64,000 bases of DNA from assembly GCA_965215005.1 (NCBI GenBank), contig CBDCCZ010000014.1, positions 160,001-224,000 on the forward strand, written 5' to 3'. Origin of the DNA: Kofleriaceae bacterium (GTDB taxonomy: Bacteria > Myxococcota_A > Polyangia > Haliangiales > Haliangiaceae). This document shows positions 1-6,555 of the stretch, piece by piece (the first letter of the stretch is position 1; every line of letters starts with the position of its first letter). Position numbers and translations under genes: made by a program. The notes under the pieces are model-generated. The model made no database searches. It worked only from the letters and a program-made list of their open reading frames with translations, and was not told where the DNA came from.

Positions 1-203
1 GTGCGATTGGCGGGCAAGTCATAGGCCAAGAGAATCTCCCGCAGCGCGTTGCGCATGGACTCCGGGCTGATGACAGGATATTCATGACCGTCCTTGCTGA
101 TCTTCTGAATGACGGTTCGGTTCTCTTCGCTCTCTCCTCGATAGTTGGAGCTGGGAGCGGCGTACGTGAGTACAGTCGCGAACAAATTTGGGTGGGCGGT
201 CAT
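1..203 (-). CDS. cas7: Type I-B (MYXAN) Cas7/DevR, 5' part; runs off the window
   Basis: Manual translation from ATG 203 (GGAGG upstream; an in-frame ATG at 245 overlaps the cmx8 stop): MTAHPNLFATVLTYAAPSSNYRGESEENRTVIQKISKDGHEYPVISPESMRNALRE. This is a typical DevR/Cst2 N-terminus, directly downstream of cmx8. Confidence 0.88.
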   Translation of the reverse strand, partial: MTAHPNLFATVLTYAAPSSNYRGESEENRTVIQKISKDGHEYPVISPESMRNALREILLAYDLPANR

Positions 204-241
204 GCGTTGTTCCTCCAGGAGTTGAATTTCATTGCGGTCAC

Positions 242-604
242 TCATGCGCGAGCGCTCAACGCCAACAACGTGAGCGTTCGGATCTCGTCCGGATCCGACA
301 TCAGCTTTTTCGTGAGCGCCACGTAGCCGGCTTCGCCGCGGCGCTGCGGAACCGAACAGAGGGTGCCGGCGAAGTACTCGATGAAATCGGCACCGGTACG
401 ACTTCGAATCGCTAAGAACGCATCTTTCGCGATCTTCTCCCGCTTGTCGCTAAAGTCTCGTTGCTTGCGCTCGTCTCCCGCCACCTGCTCCCAAGACAAG
501 CCGTGCTTGCTGGAGACCCTTCGCGAGAGAAAGGTGCCTACGATGCGATACACGATCTCCTCAGCCTCGATTCCGGCCGCTCCGTCGTTGAGCTCATCAC
601 TCAT
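242..604 (-). CDS. Putative internally translated Cas11-like small subunit within cmx8 (120 aa)
   Basis: In-frame ATG at 604 preceded by GGAG-ACCAAT. The product MSDELNDG...EEIVYRIVGTFL...DAFLAIRSR...YFAGTLCSVPQ is the helical C-terminal domain of Cmx8. Confidence 0.6.
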   Translation of the reverse strand: MSDELNDGAAGIEAEEIVYRIVGTFLSRRVSSKHGLSWEQVAGDERKQRDFSDKREKIAKDAFLAIRSRTGADFIEYFAGTLCSVPQRRGEAGYVALTKKLMSDPDEIRTLTLLALSARA

Positions 605-1819
605 ATTGGTCTCCAATCCCGTTAAAGCTTCACGCGCATCCCGACGAAAGGAATTGCGCCCCAGCGTCTGCTCATAGCCCGTCGTGCACAGCATGTGCGT
701 GAACGCGCTAAACCAAGGCTTCTCTTGCAGCAAAGCTCGCAGTCGAGCCTGGCGGAACCGAGCGTCTCGATAGGCGCTGCGAATCCGCGTGTATTCATCG
801 ACGATGTGGCCCGGCTCGACACGCGCATGGGCCAGGATCCTCACGTTGTTGCCGACCTTCAGCAGATGCAGCACATCGACGCCGAGGACGAGATCACTCG
901 TCCGCTGTGCGCCGGTACGCTGCTCAAGGCGAGCTCGTAACTGACGAAGCATGTCGAGCCCACTTTCTTCGACAATATCGATCAAGGCGTCGCGGGGCCG
1001 GTAGGCCACGATCTCAGCACCGCGCTCGCGAAGCAAGCCGGGCAACTCTCGGCAGAACATATCGAGAGTCGACACATCCGGGATCGCCAAGGCGAAGCCG
1101 TGAAACTCGCGCTTGCCGTCGTTGTCGACGACGTTCGGCACGTAGATGGTGACCACGAACGGCCAGAAATGGAGTAGGAAGAGAAAACGATTTCGGTCTT
1201 TCATGGGCACGTTGTCGGCCGTCGTCGCCATGGCACCGATGAAGTACGTGCTCGGCAGATCGCTGGCTCCATCGGGTTGGCTCAGCGCCGTCCATGTTTC
1301 TTCCGCGTCCGTCGCTGGCGTACCGTTGGCTCGCGCCTCGTAGGGAGCGCGCTGCGCGGGGATGCCGCGAAGCACACTCCAAACCGTGTCCCGCCACAGC
1401 TTCGTCCACCTGCCCTGCTCGCCCGTCGGGTCGTGCTCCAAGAGAAACGCGCCGCGAGGCACAATCTTGGGATAGTAGAAGACGGTCTTCCGCTTCACCT
1501 TGCCGCGCCTGTCGGTCTCCTCGACCTCGACCTCGCGGAGCGGCGGAATCACTGCTTTCTTCTTGTCCTTCCTGAGTTTTGACTCCGCCACCTCTTCCTT
1601 GGAGGCGGCGTAGACGTGGTCGAAGAGCTCTTCCAGGCCAGGCCGGTCGAGGCGAATGACGGCCGTGTGGGCCCCGAGGTCCACCAGCTCGGCGATCCCT
1701 TTGCGCTCCCCGGGCTGTCTTTCGAGCCACTGGAGCATGATCACGAGCCCCGCAAGCCCGGCTCGGTGTTGCGAAGACGGGAGCTCGGCCAGCTCGTAAT
1801 TTAAAGTGACTGCAGTCAT
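242..1819 (-). CDS. cmx8: Type I-MYXAN large subunit Cmx8 (Cas8b-type)
   Basis: 525 aa. Motifs LPSSQHRAGLAGL, W..LWRD..W..LRG.P, FLLHFWPFV and C-terminal TLLALSA. Lies between cas3 and cas7, with a TGATG overlap with cas3. Confidence 0.9.
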   Translation of the reverse strand: MTAVTLNYELAELPSSQHRAGLAGLVIMLQWLERQPGERKGIAELVDLGAHTAVIRLDRPGLEELFDHVYAASKEEVAESKLRKDKKKAVIPPLREVEVEETDRRGKVKRKTVFYYPKIVPRGAFLLEHDPTGEQGRWTKLWRDTVWSVLRGIPAQRAPYEARANGTPATDAEETWTALSQPDGASDLPSTYFIGAMATTADNVPMKDRNRFLFLLHFWPFVVTIYVPNVVDNDGKREFHGFALAIPDVSTLDMFCRELPGLLRERGAEIVAYRPRDALIDIVEESGLDMLRQLRARLEQRTGAQRTSDLVLGVDVLHLLKVGNNVRILAHARVEPGHIVDEYTRIRSAYRDARFRQARLRALLQEKPWFSAFTHMLCTTGYEQTLGRNSFRRDAREALTGLETNMSDELNDGAAGIEAEEIVYRIVGTFLSRRVSSKHGLSWEQVAGDERKQRDFSDKREKIAKDAFLAIRSRTGADFIEYFAGTLCSVPQRRGEAGYVALTKKLMSDPDEIRTLTLLALSARA

Positions 1820-4143
1820 CAGACCTCCGTGCCTTGGAAACCCAACCAGGCGTCATACTGCGCAGCTGAAACGATCCCGAGATAGTGTGGCAACCAGCGC
1901 GGCCGCTCCTCCGCCCGCAACAGAAAGCGACGAGGCGCCGCGAGGACCAGGCCATCGATTGCTTGTCCGCCCGCTCTGAGCGCCTTGATCTGAACTAGAT
2001 CGGTATCAAGAACACTCGCAGCGAACTGGTCCGATTCTTCGCGCACGGAGCCCGGCGTCGCGTAGTAACCACTCTCGAGAAATCGTGCGCTACGTACGAG
2101 CTTCGCTTCATCGACCGAGAATGCCTGTAGCGCCTCGGCGAGCTGGCGCTGTGAAACCGCTGGGCCGGCGACAGCGGCAATGAACTCCCGTGCCTTCTCG
2201 AGCTGCTTGTCCTCATAAGGTCGTTGGCTGGGAGCCGGAATCACGACGATCTCCGCCCGAAAGTCTGGTCCGCGCGCCAAGTGCCGATTTGTTCGACCGA
2301 AGCGCTGAATCAACGCGGACGTGGGAGCCAGCTCAGTGATGAGGAGGTCGGCGTCGATGTCGAGACTCATCTCGCACACTTGCGTCGTCACGGCCAGCGC
2401 CGAGCGCGATACCTGCTGGAAAGCCGCGACGGTGTCCTGATGGGCTCGCTTACGGTCGCAGAGGCGGAAGCGGCTGTGATAGCAGAGCACGTCGGTGGAA
2501 AGCTCGCGCTTCAGGCGCGCTGCCCATGCCTGGGCCCGCGCTACCACGTTGACGACCATGAGCACTCGCCGGCCCCGAGCAAGTGCCTCACGCACTCTGG
2601 GTACGATTGCCTCGCAATCGTCCGCGTGCTCAATCTGATATCGGCAATGATGTTCTTTCTCCTCCAGGGCCACAAGCTCAACCCGGTCCTCAGACGACGG
2701 AAACATCTGCAGGCCACTGTCGAGCAGCTCTTGCTGCCGGCTACGAGGAAGCGTTGCCGTCATACAAAGAGCGGGCACGTCGAAACTCCGCAAGAAGTCG
2801 ATAAGCGTTTTGAAGAGGCGTTTGTCGTAGCTGTGAACCTCGTCGAAGATCACAACCGAGTCCGCCAATGCGGGCAGCAAGCAAAGGCTGTCGTAGCGGT
2901 GCTCCATGAAGGCGAGGAATTGGTCGACAGTGGCGCTGTAGTAGCGCTTCGACCACAAGCCGAGCGCGTAGAGCCGATCAGCGGCCTCATCGACGAGAAG
3001 CTTGTCCTCGACGCTCTCGGGCGGATTGGTAGCCATCTCCTGCAGCTCGTATCGAGCGGTACCGTGCACGAGCGCCGCGTCGGCTTCTGGCGCCCAGCCG
3101 ACGTAGTCCCGAAATCCTTCCGTTGCCGTCCCGCGAGTGGGGTAAAGGAAGACCACTCGACCGGCCGGCCTCTCAGCGAGCCGCTGCTGTGCCCAATTCC
3201 AAGCTGCCAGCGTCTTCCCAGCACCGCAGGCCGCGAGCAGAAGCACTCTCTCGCCGCGCTTTGCCACCTCCGTCTGAAATCGATCGAGTTGGATCGACTG
3301 CTTTCGACTCCTCTCGAGCTGCTCCAGTCGCGGCCGGATCACGTCGCGTTCGACCTCGATCGAGGTCGCTGGCTCGCGGTGAACGACCTCCTCGATCCAA
3401 TCCGGCAGCGAGTAGTCCTCGCGCACCAAGGCAGACGCAACCGAATCCGCGACAATCAAGCCAGCCTTGACGGCAAAGAGCAACCCACGACGGTTCGCTC
3501 GTTCGGAGGTGTACGGAGCTTGCAGCTCACGACGCAACGCGCGAGCCGAGCGCATTCCTTCGGTTAAGGCCGCAGACCAGGGCGAGCGCTCACTCCACGA
3601 ATCGGGCCAGGTCACGACTAGCGTCGGGAGATTTGCGACATGAGCGATTCGGCGAAAGGTCGATGTCACCTGAGCATGATCGAAGCGCAGCCGAACCCGC
3701 CGAGCGCGGCGTGACTGCCCCCAACGCCACCGCTCGTCCTCCTCTGATGCCTTGAGATGATGTGACAGCACTGCCGCCGTGACGACCTCGAGATCAATGG
3801 CCGCATTCGCGGCGAGCCAACCGCGGACCTCGGGGAGGTGAAGAACCAGGGCGCTGATGTGCTCGTGCCGCAAGCTCTGCCTGGAGTCTGGCCTGCCCGA
3901 GATCGCCGCTTGGAACTCATCATTGGCCTTGCCGATATCGTGAAGAAGCGCCGCCACCCGCAAGTTCAGCAGGAACCGCGCCCGGTCATCGTCGCTGAGA
4001 CGGAAGAAGCGACAGAACGCCTCACCCCAGCGGCCATCGAGACGAAACACCCTCTGAGCCGCCTCCTCCGTATCGAGAAGATGTTTCTCGAGAGAGAGCG
4101 CATCGCGGCCAGTGCGCCGGCTCTTGGCGAACAGCGACGCCAT
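1819..4143 (-). CDS. cas3: CRISPR-associated helicase/nuclease Cas3 (HD + SF2 helicase)
   Basis: LFAKS start, HLLD...LLHDIGKAN HD domain, GAGKT Walker A, DEVH, MTAT, HSRF and QRFGR motifs. Start set at ATG 4143, just after the cas6 stop. Confidence 0.95.
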   Translation of the reverse strand: MASLFAKSRRTGRDALSLEKHLLDTEEAAQRVFRLDGRWGEAFCRFFRLSDDDRARFLLNLRVAALLHDIGKANDEFQAAISGRPDSRQSLRHEHISALVLHLPEVRGWLAANAAIDLEVVTAAVLSHHLKASEEDERWRWGQSRRARRVRLRFDHAQVTSTFRRIAHVANLPTLVVTWPDSWSERSPWSAALTEGMRSARALRRELQAPYTSERANRRGLLFAVKAGLIVADSVASALVREDYSLPDWIEEVVHREPATSIEVERDVIRPRLEQLERSRKQSIQLDRFQTEVAKRGERVLLLAACGAGKTLAAWNWAQQRLAERPAGRVVFLYPTRGTATEGFRDYVGWAPEADAALVHGTARYELQEMATNPPESVEDKLLVDEAADRLYALGLWSKRYYSATVDQFLAFMEHRYDSLCLLPALADSVVIFDEVHSYDKRLFKTLIDFLRSFDVPALCMTATLPRSRQQELLDSGLQMFPSSEDRVELVALEEKEHHCRYQIEHADDCEAIVPRVREALARGRRVLMVVNVVARAQAWAARLKRELSTDVLCYHSRFRLCDRKRAHQDTVAAFQQVSRSALAVTTQVCEMSLDIDADLLITELAPTSALIQRFGRTNRHLARGPDFRAEIVVIPAPSQRPYEDKQLEKAREFIAAVAGPAVSQRQLAEALQAFSVDEAKLVRSARFLESGYYATPGSVREESDQFAASVLDTDLVQIKALRAGGQAIDGLVLAAPRRFLLRAEERPRWLPHYLGIVSAAQYDAWLGFQGTEV

Positions 4144-4147
4144 ACCG

Positions 4148-4771
4148 TCATCCAAGAGAGACTCTCCGCGGCGGTGGCACGAACAGGCCTGCGCCCATCC
4201 GCCGCCGGCCACCGAGCCCCGCGCTCTGCGTCGCTAGGGACGCACTTGCTTCCAAGTGCCCCAAAGCCACAGCGAAGCCGACAACGACTTTGTCTTTGAT
4301 GCGCATCACCCGCCGCGGGCCCACCGCGACCTCTATGCGCTCCGGGTCCTGCCCAAGATCGGGAATGTTTGCCAGCTGCCGACGCAGAGAATGCAAGAAC
4401 GGCTCTGGTTCGCATGCGCCCTTGATGGTGACGAAGCGAGCTCGCAGCGACACCGACGGGATAAGCGGGAAGATGCGCGGTGGTTCAAGCCTAATGCGCT
4501 GACCGCCAACCTCGATCGTTTGATCAGTGAGTGGGAGAACCGTCGCGATCACCGAGTTTGGAACGCGCAGTTTGACGTGAGATTTCGGCGTTAACGCCAG
4601 CACGCCTGCCTCCGTCCTCTGCCCGAGTATTGGATGCACGCCCCAATCTCGTTGTGCGTGAAGCTCCGGCAATGCTCGCGACAACGAAGAAAACAGCGAG
4701 TATCCGTGGTCGAGCGGTACCAAGCGACCGCGCGCAGGAAACGCTAGATCGACATAAACAGCGGAGCTCAT
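4148..4771 (-). CDS. cas6: Type I-MYXAN Cas6/Cmx6 endoribonuclease
   Basis: VDLAFP..G..VPLDHGY.L N-terminus, C-terminal G-rich loop GLGGRRRMGAGLF, strong SD GAGGGGGGAG. Confidence 0.93.
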   Translation of the reverse strand: MSSAVYVDLAFPARGRLVPLDHGYSLFSSLSRALPELHAQRDWGVHPILGQRTEAGVLALTPKSHVKLRVPNSVIATVLPLTDQTIEVGGQRIRLEPPRIFPLIPSVSLRARFVTIKGACEPEPFLHSLRRQLANIPDLGQDPERIEVAVGPRRVMRIKDKVVVGFAVALGHLEASASLATQSAGLGGRRRMGAGLFVPPPRRVSLG

Positions 4772-4926
4772 CTCGATTCTCCCCCCTCATGGAAACGAAA
4801 CTGCCGATGGTGAGCACGCGTCGAGCATGCTGACTGCCGTGCTCCAAGCGTCGTGAAACAGGAGCGTCAACGATCGATGATTCGACGGTACCGCCCCCGC
4901 TTAGCCGTCGAGAAACTGGTGTGCCA

Positions 4927-5029
4927 GCGCCCCCGCGTCTCCGGCATCAACGCGAGTGAGTGGCTCGTTGGCAGGGCGCACGACTAGAGCTGAATGCTCA
5001 ACGCCGGAACGACAAGGCTTGCAGCGTCG
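4927..5029 (-). CRISPR. Degenerate single-spacer mini-array (crRNA-like regulatory RNA): pseudo-repeat 5029-4994, spacer 4993-4963, pseudo-repeat 4962-4927
   Basis: Minus strand reads ...CCGGCGTTGAGCAT|TCAGCTCTAGTCGTGCGCCCTGCCAACGAGC|CACTCACTCGCGTTGATGCCGGAGACGCGGGGGCGC. The two flanks resemble the two ends of MYXAN-type repeats (...TGATGCCG...GGCGTTGAGCAC, recalled from memory). The spacer matches 5091-5106 at 13/16 positions. Confidence 0.72.
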
Positions 5030-5090
5030 TCGCGACCATCGGGTCCACGCAGTGACGCTGACACCAACCAGAACTAGCACGCGAAGATTT

Positions 5091-5135
5091 GCACTACCAG
5101 TGCTGACATAATTTTTCTTCGAAAGACAATAATGC
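5091..5135 (-). promoter_or_regulatory. Predicted Cascade target (protospacer 5091-5106, PAM ATG 5107-5109) in an AT-rich, probably promoter region upstream of the cas operon
   Basis: Minus strand ATG-TCAGCACTGGTAGTGC versus spacer TCAGCTCTAGTCGTGC. Adjacent AT-rich tract CATAATTTTTCTTCGAAAGACAATAAT. I could not place exact -35/-10 boxes. Confidence 0.6.
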
Positions 5136-5442
5136 GCACCTCGAGTTCCCCCCTGATCATCCGGCTCGCGACCAGTCGCCCCGATGACTCCAGATCAGAT
5201 CCGACGCTCTCAGCTCCCTGCGCGATCGAAACGAGACCAGTGGATCCGCCACGAGCACCGAGCGTATGCGGATTGACCTGAGAGCGCTCCGGGAGTGCTG
5301 CCACGCTGCATGAGATTGCTTTGAAGCGTTGGCTGATGAGTTTCTGTTCTTGAAGTGGCAGCTGGGAACGAGCAGCGGATCGCCTCGCACGAGCTGCGGC
5401 GCTGAGTGAGGTGTGGCGCTGCGTCGCTGCGCGCCAGGCCCG

Positions 5443-6555
5443 TCATGGCGGTGGAATGGGCAGCTCGGGGCGCGGTGGCAGGGCGCCGGCGATGATGAGG
5501 GCGTCTTCTTCTTCGGGGGCGAAGTCGCGGCGGCCGAAGCGGATCATGGTGAGAAAGAAGCTCACGGCCAGGGGGCCGACGATGAGGCCGATGCCGCCGA
5601 GCATGAGCATGCCGCCGATGAGGCTGAAGAAGACGACGACGCCGTGAATCTGCACGCCGCCGCGTATCAAGATTGGCTTTAGCAGGTTGTCGACCAAGCC
5701 GACGACGACCGCGGCCCACACGGCGAGAAAGATCGCCTGCCACGTCAAGCCCAGCAGCAGCAGCAAGCCGCACAGCGGATACGCCACGATCGCAGTGCCC
5801 ACGGACGGCAAAAAGGCGGCGAAGAAGGTCAGCAAGCCGAAGAACAGTGGATTGGGCACCGAGGCGATGACGTAGCCAATGGTTGCGACACCCCCTTGCG
5901 CGGCGGCGGTGATGACGCTGGAGCCGACGACCGATCGCGAGACGTGACGAAAGCGAACCAGGAGCTCGGTGGTTTGGCCGTTGGGAAGCGGCGAGATTTT
6001 CTCGAGCCAGACGAGCAATCTCTTGCCGTCTAGGAGCATGGCGTAGAAGGCGACGAGGAACATGCCGAGGTCCAGGAGCAACTGCGAGAGGATGCCGAGA
6101 ATGTCGCCAATTACACTCGCGGCCACCATGCCGCGCGCCGCCGCCTGTTGCGAGAGTCGCTGCGGATCGACCGGCAGTCGGCTGATGAGGTCTCGTAGCG
6201 GCTCCTCGAGGTGATCGGGAAGCTTGCCGGCTAGGGCGTTCAGCCCACCCTCCTGCAATGTCTCGCGCACGAAGGTGTAGGCGGCCAGTGCTTCGCGAAG
6301 CGCAATGGTGATGACGGCTGCGAACGGCAGTAGCAGCAGCAACACCACCGCAGTTGACATCAGCGCAGCCCCGAGCTTGTCGCGATTACCGAGCCACCCA
6401 CTGATGCGGTCGGTTGCGGGCTTGAGAATGCCTGCTAGCACAGCGGCGAGAAACAACGGCTCCCACAGCGGCCAAACCACCGCCAGAAAGAGGAGGATCG
6501 AGGCGGTAAGAAGTACCCCGTAGGCAACCCACGAGGTCCGGCTTTGCGTGCTCAC
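5443..6555 (-). CDS. AI-2E (PerM/TqsA) family transporter
   Basis: Multi-TM protein with PLFLAAVLA..L.P, ...P.VG.A.V..P and VDNLLKP.LI...IH...VFFSLIGG....G..GLIVGP motifs. Confidence 0.9.
   Translation of the reverse strand: MSTQSRTSWVAYGVLLTASILLFLAVVWPLWEPLFLAAVLAGILKPATDRISGWLGNRDKLGAALMSTAVVLLLLLPFAAVITIALREALAAYTFVRETLQEGGLNALAGKLPDHLEEPLRDLISRLPVDPQRLSQQAAARGMVAASVIGDILGILSQLLLDLGMFLVAFYAMLLDGKRLLVWLEKISPLPNGQTTELLVRFRHVSRSVVGSSVITAAAQGGVATIGYVIASVPNPLFFGLLTFFAAFLPSVGTAIVAYPLCGLLLLLGLTWQAIFLAVWAAVVVGLVDNLLKPILIRGGVQIHGVVVFFSLIGGMLMLGGIGLIVGPLAVSFFLTMIRFGRRDFAPEEEDALIIAGALPPRPELPIPPP

Follow-up and report, generated by a model that had tools for sequence, protein, structure and literature searches.

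Toxin-antitoxin RNA pairs named CreTA were reportedly described by Li et al. in Science in 2021. Autorepression guided by CreA or CreR has been shown for subtypes I-B, I-E and V-A of the CRISPR-Cas systems, according to the available text of Liu et al. (10.1101/2023.03.10.532045), and the main text of the survey by Shmakov et al. (PMC10120712) gives repeat-like sequences as enriched beside cas6 in I-B (27%) and mini-arrays as present in 18% of 1243 I-B loci. Here we describe such a mini-array in a window of 64,000 nucleotides (nt), the whole stretch of DNA analysed, from a Kofleriaceae bacterium (assembly of 6.2 Mb in 62 contigs, 92.8% complete; window at C14:160001-224000, C14 being the contig that holds it). 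The element lies upstream of cas6 in a MYXAN (Cmx8) type I-B CRISPR-Cas locus, labelled G000 below, and consists of two degenerate repeats around one spacer-like guide, sharing its strand with the cas genes and the native array. Judged from its sequence and its recurrence, we consider it probable, at roughly 0.65, that this degenerate repeat-spacer-repeat is a CreR-type mini-array that would guide Cascade to its own promoter region and that of the cas genes, providing negative feedback.

A gap of 670 nt separates the gene of an AI-2E-family transporter (ending at 5443) from cas6 (starting at 4771). Read on the minus strand it contains, in this order, an A+T-rich stretch, an ATG, the target, about 60 nt, the first degenerate repeat (psiR1), the guide (psiS) and the second degenerate repeat (psiR2), with cas6 following 155 nt downstream of psiR2 (Table 1). 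The native array of this genome (C14:156407-150680, cas-gene strand) comprises 80 repeats and spacers of 33-44 nt. Its repeat consensus, GTCGTACTCGCCGTGATGCCGAAAGGCGTTGAGCAC, is of the MYXAN type, 36-37 nt long and ending in GATGCCG-NNN-GGCGTTGAGCAC; the same end was found in 23 arrays of this repeat family from other loci with the gene cas6_cmx6 (MYXAN). The repeat end which the first-pass annotation of this DNA had given for MYXAN systems was thus right. Its coordinates and bases for both pseudo-repeats, the 31-nt spacer and the complementary CTCGCGT/ACGCGGG segments were all correct when the minus strand was read again, and the alignment of the pseudo-repeats to the real array that it had called for related psiR1 to the 3' end and psiR2 to the 5' part of the native repeat, with the scores given in Table 1. 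The last 8 nt of psiR1 (5001-4994) form the predicted 5' handle, UUGAGCAU; as DNA, TTGAGCAT compares to the native TTGAGCAC at 7/8 positions, and at 11/12 when the preceding GGCG is included. When the 36 nt of psiR1 are folded alone, a hairpin forms (-11.1 kcal/mol) with its 3' strand in the same register as in the native repeat. In psiR2 the handle part of the repeat is gone. The sequence from 4962 onwards reads CACTCACTCGCGTTGATGCCGGAGACGCGGG, in which CTCGCGT (CUCGCGU in the RNA) is able to pair with ACGCGGG, and this pairing is present in the fold of the 156-nt region. A small hairpin just beyond psiR2, a possible weak 3' end of a small RNA, failed the terminator scan. The features that define the CreR class at the sequence level were therefore all found here: a pair of degenerate repeats, the handle in psiR1, the 5' part in psiR2 and a guide match flanked by a protospacer-adjacent motif (PAM).

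The match between guide and target, including its three mismatches at guide positions 6, 9 and 12 and the ATG 5' of the target, was reproduced exactly as first annotated. Beyond nt 16 the following 15 positions hold a single match. The target is located 113 nt upstream of psiS and 320 nt upstream of cas6, within a G+C minimum of 0.417 at 5080-5139, compared with about 0.62 around it. We assessed the match by shuffling the first 18 guide bases 20,000 times and searching +/-600 nt with a threshold of 13/15, positions 6, 12 and 18 being ignored. This threshold was reached by 66 of the 20,000 shuffles, and with an ATG flank by one. A scan of the genome (12.4 million positions, both strands) found 10 other sites with at least 13/15 matches, none of them flanked by ATG; an ATG-flanked site of this quality is unique to the cis position in the 6.2-Mb genome. 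A loose pattern of handle plus TGATGCCG had 69 hits in the genome outside the array, which implies that the repeat motifs by themselves are not rare, and among these 69 hits an ATG-flanked target was found only for the copy upstream of cas6. Altogether, the match between mini-array and target is not due to chance.

Table 1. Mini-array, target and cas genes at the start of the window (window positions).
Feature	Position	Strand	Basis or remark
cas7 (DevR type), start only	3..245	-	cas5 (DevS type) follows outside the window
cmx8 (Cas8b, MYXAN large Cascade subunit)	242..1819	-	TIGR04413, 578 bits (cut-off 150)
cas3 (HD nuclease and helicase)	1819..4212	-	TIGR01587 and TIGR01596, both above cut-offs
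cas6 (Cmx6)	4148..4771	-	first gene of the operon; TIGR02807, 177.3 bits (cut-off 98.85)
small hairpin CTGG-CACA-CCAG, then TTTCT	4911..4927	-	possible weak small-RNA 3' end, inferred
psiR2, second degenerate repeat	4927..4962	-	ACTCGCGTTGATGCCG, 14/16 compared with repeat positions 6-21
psiS, spacer-like guide, 31 nt	4963..4993	-	TCAGCTCTAGTCGTGCGCCCTGCCAACGAGC, read from sequence
psiR1, first degenerate repeat	4994..5029	-	last 12 nt GGCGTTGAGCAT, 11/12 compared with native repeat
target (protospacer-like)	5091..5106	-	TCAGCACTGGTAGTGC, 13/16 compared with psiS nt 1-16
PAM-like ATG directly 5' of target	5107..5109	-	ATG flank in 15/16 spacer-target pairs
A+T-rich stretch, presumed promoter(s)	5107..5150	.	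promoter role inferred

Loci with cas6_cmx6 were collected from family-level relatives (5 of 41 genomes with the gene), species genomes (39 loci) and metagenomes (80 loci), and additionally from the phylum (12 of 401 genomes) and from the family of a Myxococcus genome (14 of 121 genomes). A unit was counted when it had a handle of at least 7/8, in most cases a second pseudo-repeat, and a flanked site matching the seed no more than about 320 nt away; since some loci were fetched twice and many contigs were too short to include the flanks, the counts are lower bounds. Units with a target were detected in 12 of 126 sources (G000, L025, L031, L036, L044, L051, L101, L102, L103, L112, L118 and L123), in none of nine further cas6 loci from the 401 genomes of the phylum, and in 2 of 19 Myxococcaceae loci (L144 and L146), to which L163 was added by DNA similarity. 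Looser cut-offs (a handle of 6/8, or any 13/18 match) were swamped by noise in the G+C-rich DNA, and handles of at least 7/8 were kept; among the intact-seed hits of the loose search ATG was the commonest flank (11/197).

In this way analogous units were found in 15 further MYXAN loci, 14 with an ATG-flanked target and one with ATA (L031). Polyangium, Sorangium, a Thiosymbion symbiont and Planctomycetota are represented among the collected loci, the rest being metagenome contigs or Myxococcaceae genomes. The guides are mutually unrelated in sequence, yet each fits its own neighbouring target, which is the co-variation of spacer and target that the first-pass annotation had suggested looking for. 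L101 and L103 even differ by a compensatory change, guide position 3 having changed alike on the guide and the target sides. The position of the unit varies: the order is target-unit-cas6 in G000, L051 and the Myxococcaceae loci L144, L146 and L163, and unit-target-cas6 in L112 and L118, while the unit stands between cas6 and the next gene in L044 and L101-L103 and is divergent from cas6 or farther off in L031, L025, L123 and L036. On visual inspection L118, L123 and L051 have sigma-70-like hexamers 8-14 nt upstream of the PAM, which suggests that in these three the target lies where a transcript begins; nothing promoter-like was returned when L146 and L051 were scanned. Alignment of the upstream regions of G000 and L051 revealed no usable DNA homology.

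The collected loci contained other elements near cas6. L118 (L118:3914 and L118:3802-3819) has another handle-like element, TTGAACAT, 120 nt downstream of its target; the 18 nt behind this element agree with that target at 14/18 positions, so that a guide-like unit stands on either side of the site. Two Planctomycetota loci have a mini-array in common that lies about 115 nt downstream of cas6 and on the other strand (L020:2552 and L044:10709, minus strand); no clear target was found for that of L020, and the match in L044 is weak, with an ATG flank, mismatches at 6 and 10 and pairing that stops at 13. In L004, L005 and L007, family-level relatives lacking the mini-array, palindromes of the type TGTCTCAC-N6-GTGAGACA precede cas6, and in L004 a gene for a regulator with helix-turn-helix (HTH), WYL and WCX domains (L004:2240-3241, minus strand) is also located upstream of cas6; palindromes and regulator would be a protein-based alternative to RNA-based control. 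In Sorangium loci, tandem repeats rich in G+C and unrelated to the CRISPR repeat were seen 0.4-1.1 kb upstream of cas6 (L028:9330-9601, L031:8847-9038, L032:9214-9533 and L047:9226-9454).

The ATG flank, seen in 15 of the 16 collected spacer-target pairs, agrees with what has been described for a related complex. In the available text on the MYXAN/Cmx8 Cascade of Synechocystis PCC 6714, this complex prefers a 5'-AYG-3' PAM, was used with ATG, and in the solved structure flips out every sixth base (PMC11096372), which bears out both statements of the first-pass annotation, an ATG PAM for the Synechocystis system and an unpaired base at every sixth crRNA (CRISPR RNA) position. The spacers of the native array had no match among phage and plasmid records. 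Native spacer 8 matches C7:228-263 and spacer 73 matches C17:91096-91129 perfectly (36/36 and 34/34); these sites are either self-targets or mobile elements that were sorted into this genome bin. In the near-identical array of Myxococcus sp. Y35 (L035), one spacer matches terminase genes of unrelated phages at 83-93%.

The mismatches are not scattered evenly along the guides. They were tallied at guide positions 1-18 of 13 spacer-target pairs representing 11 independent lineages, and of 35 mismatches at positions 1-16 in these lineages 27 fell on multiples of three, a post hoc count, as the pattern had been suggested by the first cases. Position 6 was mismatched in 7, position 9 in 8, position 12 in 9 and position 15 in 3 of the 11 lineages, and positions 1-5 and 13 in none. 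Freedom at positions 6 and 12 is expected from the sixth-base flipping in the solved MYXAN Cascade, but position 9 is not a flipped-out position and flipping leaves its mismatch unexplained. In L146 it is the lone mismatch in 18 positions (17/18). In the three related Myxococcaceae genomes target and guide read A/T, A/T and T/G there, both sides having changed while the mismatch stayed. Mismatches at multiples of three from 6 onwards could tune Cascade to repress without licensing Cas3. A 3-nt periodicity in the reading of DNA by the E. coli Cascade is said to have been reported by Jung et al. in Cell in 2017.

A coding cause was considered for the every-third-base mismatches, with the ATG of the PAM serving as a start codon and wobble positions drifting. 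Guide/target differences are synonymous in G000 and the Myxococcaceae loci. As a general explanation it was rejected: the ATG of L112 is followed immediately by TAG, the frame of L036 stops after 6 codons, L031 has ATA, and the differences in L025, L031 and L118 alter the amino acid.

In the Myxococcaceae the unit is part of a larger module. L146 (L146:2040-2480, minus strand, in a 9.0-Mb genome), L144/L162 and L163 carry an insert of 360-400 bp between the upstream gene and cas6 that three sister genomes lack. It comprises an ATG and an 18-nt target, AGGAG directly after it, an open reading frame (ORF) of 40 codons, about 55 nt, the mini-array and about 40 nt to cas6. The product of this ORF is identical to a hypothetical protein and 83% identical to a 'CRISPR-Cas system negative regulator DevI'. 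In three Myxococcaceae genomes an ATG-flanked target lies just upstream of the ribosome-binding site of a devI homologue. According to the available texts of two studies, the dev operon starts with devI, whose product is a sporulation inhibitor of 40 residues that is kept low by Cascade proteins, deletion of devT, devR or devS raises the dev transcript about 10-fold, and most natural isolates lack devI (10.1101/2023.07.26.550624; 10.1101/415331). A 2021 review, in the part accessible, called the mechanism of DevTRS autoregulation unknown, noted that no matching array spacer was seen, and stated that neither Cas3 nor Cas6 activity is required (PMC8616872). The mini-array of the three genomes is not mentioned in the available texts of these dev papers (10.1101/2023.07.26.550624; 10.1101/415331; PMC8616872). 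A guide encoded by it would explain the need for exactly DevT, DevR and DevS as well as the independence from Cas3, while the simplest version of this link, in which Cas6 matures the guide, is disfavoured by the report that Cas6 activity is not needed. We hold as a tentative extension, doubting it slightly more than crediting it, that MYXAN Cascades are generally steered by such RNAs, that the copy between devI and cas6 is the missing guide of DevTRS autoregulation, and that the mismatches at position 9, or at multiples of three, may be a selected rule.

Of the genes downstream of the mini-array, those inside the window are listed in Table 1; beyond the window, cas7 is followed by cas5 (DevS type; TIGR02586, 112.8 bits, above cut-off), a cas4-cas1 fusion, cas2 and the array. 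With Cmx6, Cmx8, Cmx5/DevS and the MYXAN Cas1 all present, the CRISPR-Cas system is of MYXAN (Cmx8) type I-B. The MYXAN Cas1 model TIGR03983 was matched in two pieces with a stop codon between them, an in-frame TAG at C14:157350-157352 (L010:1051-1053; minus strand, outside the window) that falls after position 217 and before position 227 of the model. Such a stop reflects either a break in the adaptation gene or an assembly error.

On the reading that we favour, the minus-strand segment 5029-4927 would be transcribed together with cas6 or just ahead of it, and its transcript would yield a crRNA-like RNA with the 5' handle, the 31-nt guide and a degenerate 3' part. Cascade loaded with this RNA (Cmx8, Cas7, Cas5 and probably Cas6) would recognise the ATG-flanked site 5109-5091 within the A+T-rich stretch through the ATG and an intact seed (guide positions 1-5, 7 and 8), forming a brief R-loop, interrupted in places, where the transcription unit with the RNA gene and the cas operon begins. 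Pairing of positions 1-16, broken at 6, 9 and 12, might suffice to hold the DNA and to block transcription while being too little to license Cas3. Negative feedback would result, with more free Cascade leading to less cas transcription, and removal of Cascade or competition for it would lift the repression. We infer expression, processing by Cas6, loading into Cascade, the position of the promoter and repression from the arrangement of the locus; that repression would proceed without target cleavage is suggested by the short, interrupted complementarity and by analogy to the published systems. The first-pass annotation had proposed feedback control of cas expression or toxin silencing by Cascade carrying this RNA, and had named a deviating native repeat end and a PAM unlike ATG among the results that would speak against it. 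The comparative evidence supports its interpretation, and none of those results that were looked into came out against it.

Several observations weigh against this reading. The handle of psiR1 ends in U where the native one ends in C, psiR1 bears no likeness to the native repeat beyond its last 12 nt, and psiS is shorter than every native spacer. In the other mini-arrays psiS is mostly 28-36 nt long. The psiR1 hairpin is absent from the minimum-energy fold of its 156-nt context, and this region folds no better than its shuffles (z = +0.61; 145 of 200 shuffles at least as stable). The promoter scan of 4600-5600 identified no sigma-70-like match on the minus strand; the sole match in this interval is on the plus strand (CTGACA at 5103-5108, 16 nt, GACAAT at 5125-5130), overlaps the PAM and the target and faces away from cas6. 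All six cas6 loci of four family-level relatives are without the unit. The perfect self-matches of native spacers 8 and 73 have AGA and TGC as 5' flanks, of which TGC becomes ATG when the spacer boundary is shifted by one base, and the phage terminase matches of the Y35 spacer are flanked by GCG and CGG, which are the flanks of homologues and not of the source of the spacer. Finally, the in-frame TAG in cas4-cas1 implies that the CRISPR locus may be decaying.

The plus-strand promoter-like match over the target keeps a second explanation alive, namely that the RNA is a CreA-type antitoxin and Cascade binding mainly silences a toxic or growth-arresting neighbour that we do not see, control of the cas genes being a side effect; such a module would make the cell dependent on an intact Cascade. 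We consider this unlikely. It has a precedent in Haloarcula hispanica, where, in the available text, the CreA target is placed tightly between the divergent creT and cas8 promoters (10.1101/2023.03.10.532045), and in the three Myxococcaceae genomes a small gene whose product resembles DevI does stand between target and mini-array. In the window, by contrast, only the stretch of about 60 nt lies between target and psiR1, and the ORFs listed there are mechanical ones with no visible ribosome-binding site, on which family matching was not tried. No toxin candidate emerged from the gap (4772-5442), neither a convincing small ORF nor an Rfam family. The plus-strand match faces 306 nt with no recognised gene, in which an Rfam search found nothing, with the proviso that RNA toxins are hard to recognise from sequence; over 4600-5600 Rfam returned only two chance-level matches.

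It is improbable that the element is an inert remnant of a former array or a stray repeat insertion, with the match as a leftover or coincidence. Both pseudo-repeats are heavily degenerate, close relatives have cas6 without the unit, cas4-cas1 is interrupted and the region folds no better than shuffles, all of which would suit a remnant. Against this, no second ATG-flanked seed match of this quality exists in the genome and one shuffle in 20,000 equalled it, the arrangement recurs in 15 other loci with other sequences while PAM and mismatch pattern are kept, and conservation is seen in what a Cascade guide needs, namely the handle and, in the second repeat, the 5' half. Least of all do we credit that a real RNA has its true target elsewhere, in another defence system or a host gene, and that the cis site is secondary: crRNA-like RNAs repressing the promoters of other immune systems have been reported (10.1101/2024.12.27.630466, available text), but the 92.8%-complete assembly has no other ATG-flanked site of at least 13/15, and the lone ACG-flanked site (C49:235376) is mismatched at guide position 1.

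An autoregulatory guide would account for the 670-nt 'empty' region before the CRISPR operon, and MYXAN would join the subtypes in which a degenerate guide serves self-regulation. The ATG self-targets (15 of 16) constitute PAM evidence across several bacterial groups that is independent of one solved complex. Moreover, the natural mismatches at positions 6, 9 and 12, and sometimes 15 and 18, form a data set on the guide positions needed for Cascade binding. The order target-devI homologue-mini-array-cas6 offers a testable mechanism for DevTRS autoregulation and may explain this old puzzle of Myxococcus development.

Among the described systems, CreR as presented in the available text of Liu et al. 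is closest to the mini-array (10.1101/2023.03.10.532045). Common to both are degenerate repeats around a guide, an 8-nt handle in psiR1, the repeat part that gives the 3' handle in psiR2, a PAM flank and seed-side pairing, at a site next to a cas promoter there and to a presumed one here, and autorepression by Cascade without cleavage is proposed there as it is here. The split of handle and 5' part between psiR1 and psiR2 seen in our locus corresponds to the division described for the creA and creR genes in the accessible texts (10.1101/2023.03.10.532045; PMC8501985). The tested CreR cases are haloarchaeal I-B, Salmonella I-E and V-A systems, whereas the present one is MYXAN, and the Salmonella guide agrees with its target over 15 bases in a row, whereas pairing here is broken at 6, 9 and 12 (same source). 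A further difference from the CreR cases is the location of the target upstream of the very gene for the RNA, which would therefore also repress its own synthesis. Neither Myxococc, MYXAN nor Cmx8 occurs in the text of Liu et al. (10.1101/2023.03.10.532045).

The survey of Shmakov et al. likewise describes, in its main text, putative PAM-flanked targets in the cas6 promoter region with mismatches at guide positions 6 and 12 (PMC10120712). It covers all of I-B, its available text makes no mention of a recurrent mismatch at position 9 and, supplements aside, names no myxobacterial or MYXAN case. The published texts on such RNAs, as far as accessible and apart from their supplements, in which such loci may be listed, contain no word starting with 'Myxococc'. 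With CreTA (PMC8501985, available text) the mini-array shares a crRNA-like RNA that would lead Cascade to a promoter adjoining the cas genes; in CreTA divergent promoters can flank the target. It differs in that no toxin was identified in the window, and the Myxococcaceae relatives carry a gene for a DevI-homologous protein and not an RNA toxin. The DevTRS system of Myxococcus xanthus belongs to the same CRISPR subtype family, with DevT as large subunit, DevR as Cas7 and DevS as Cas5, and, as the accessible part of the dev literature has it, Cas3 is dispensable there, as expected for binding without cleavage. By the sequence features that it shares with CreR, the element upstream of cas6 is a fresh member of this published RNA class, to which it adds MYXAN.

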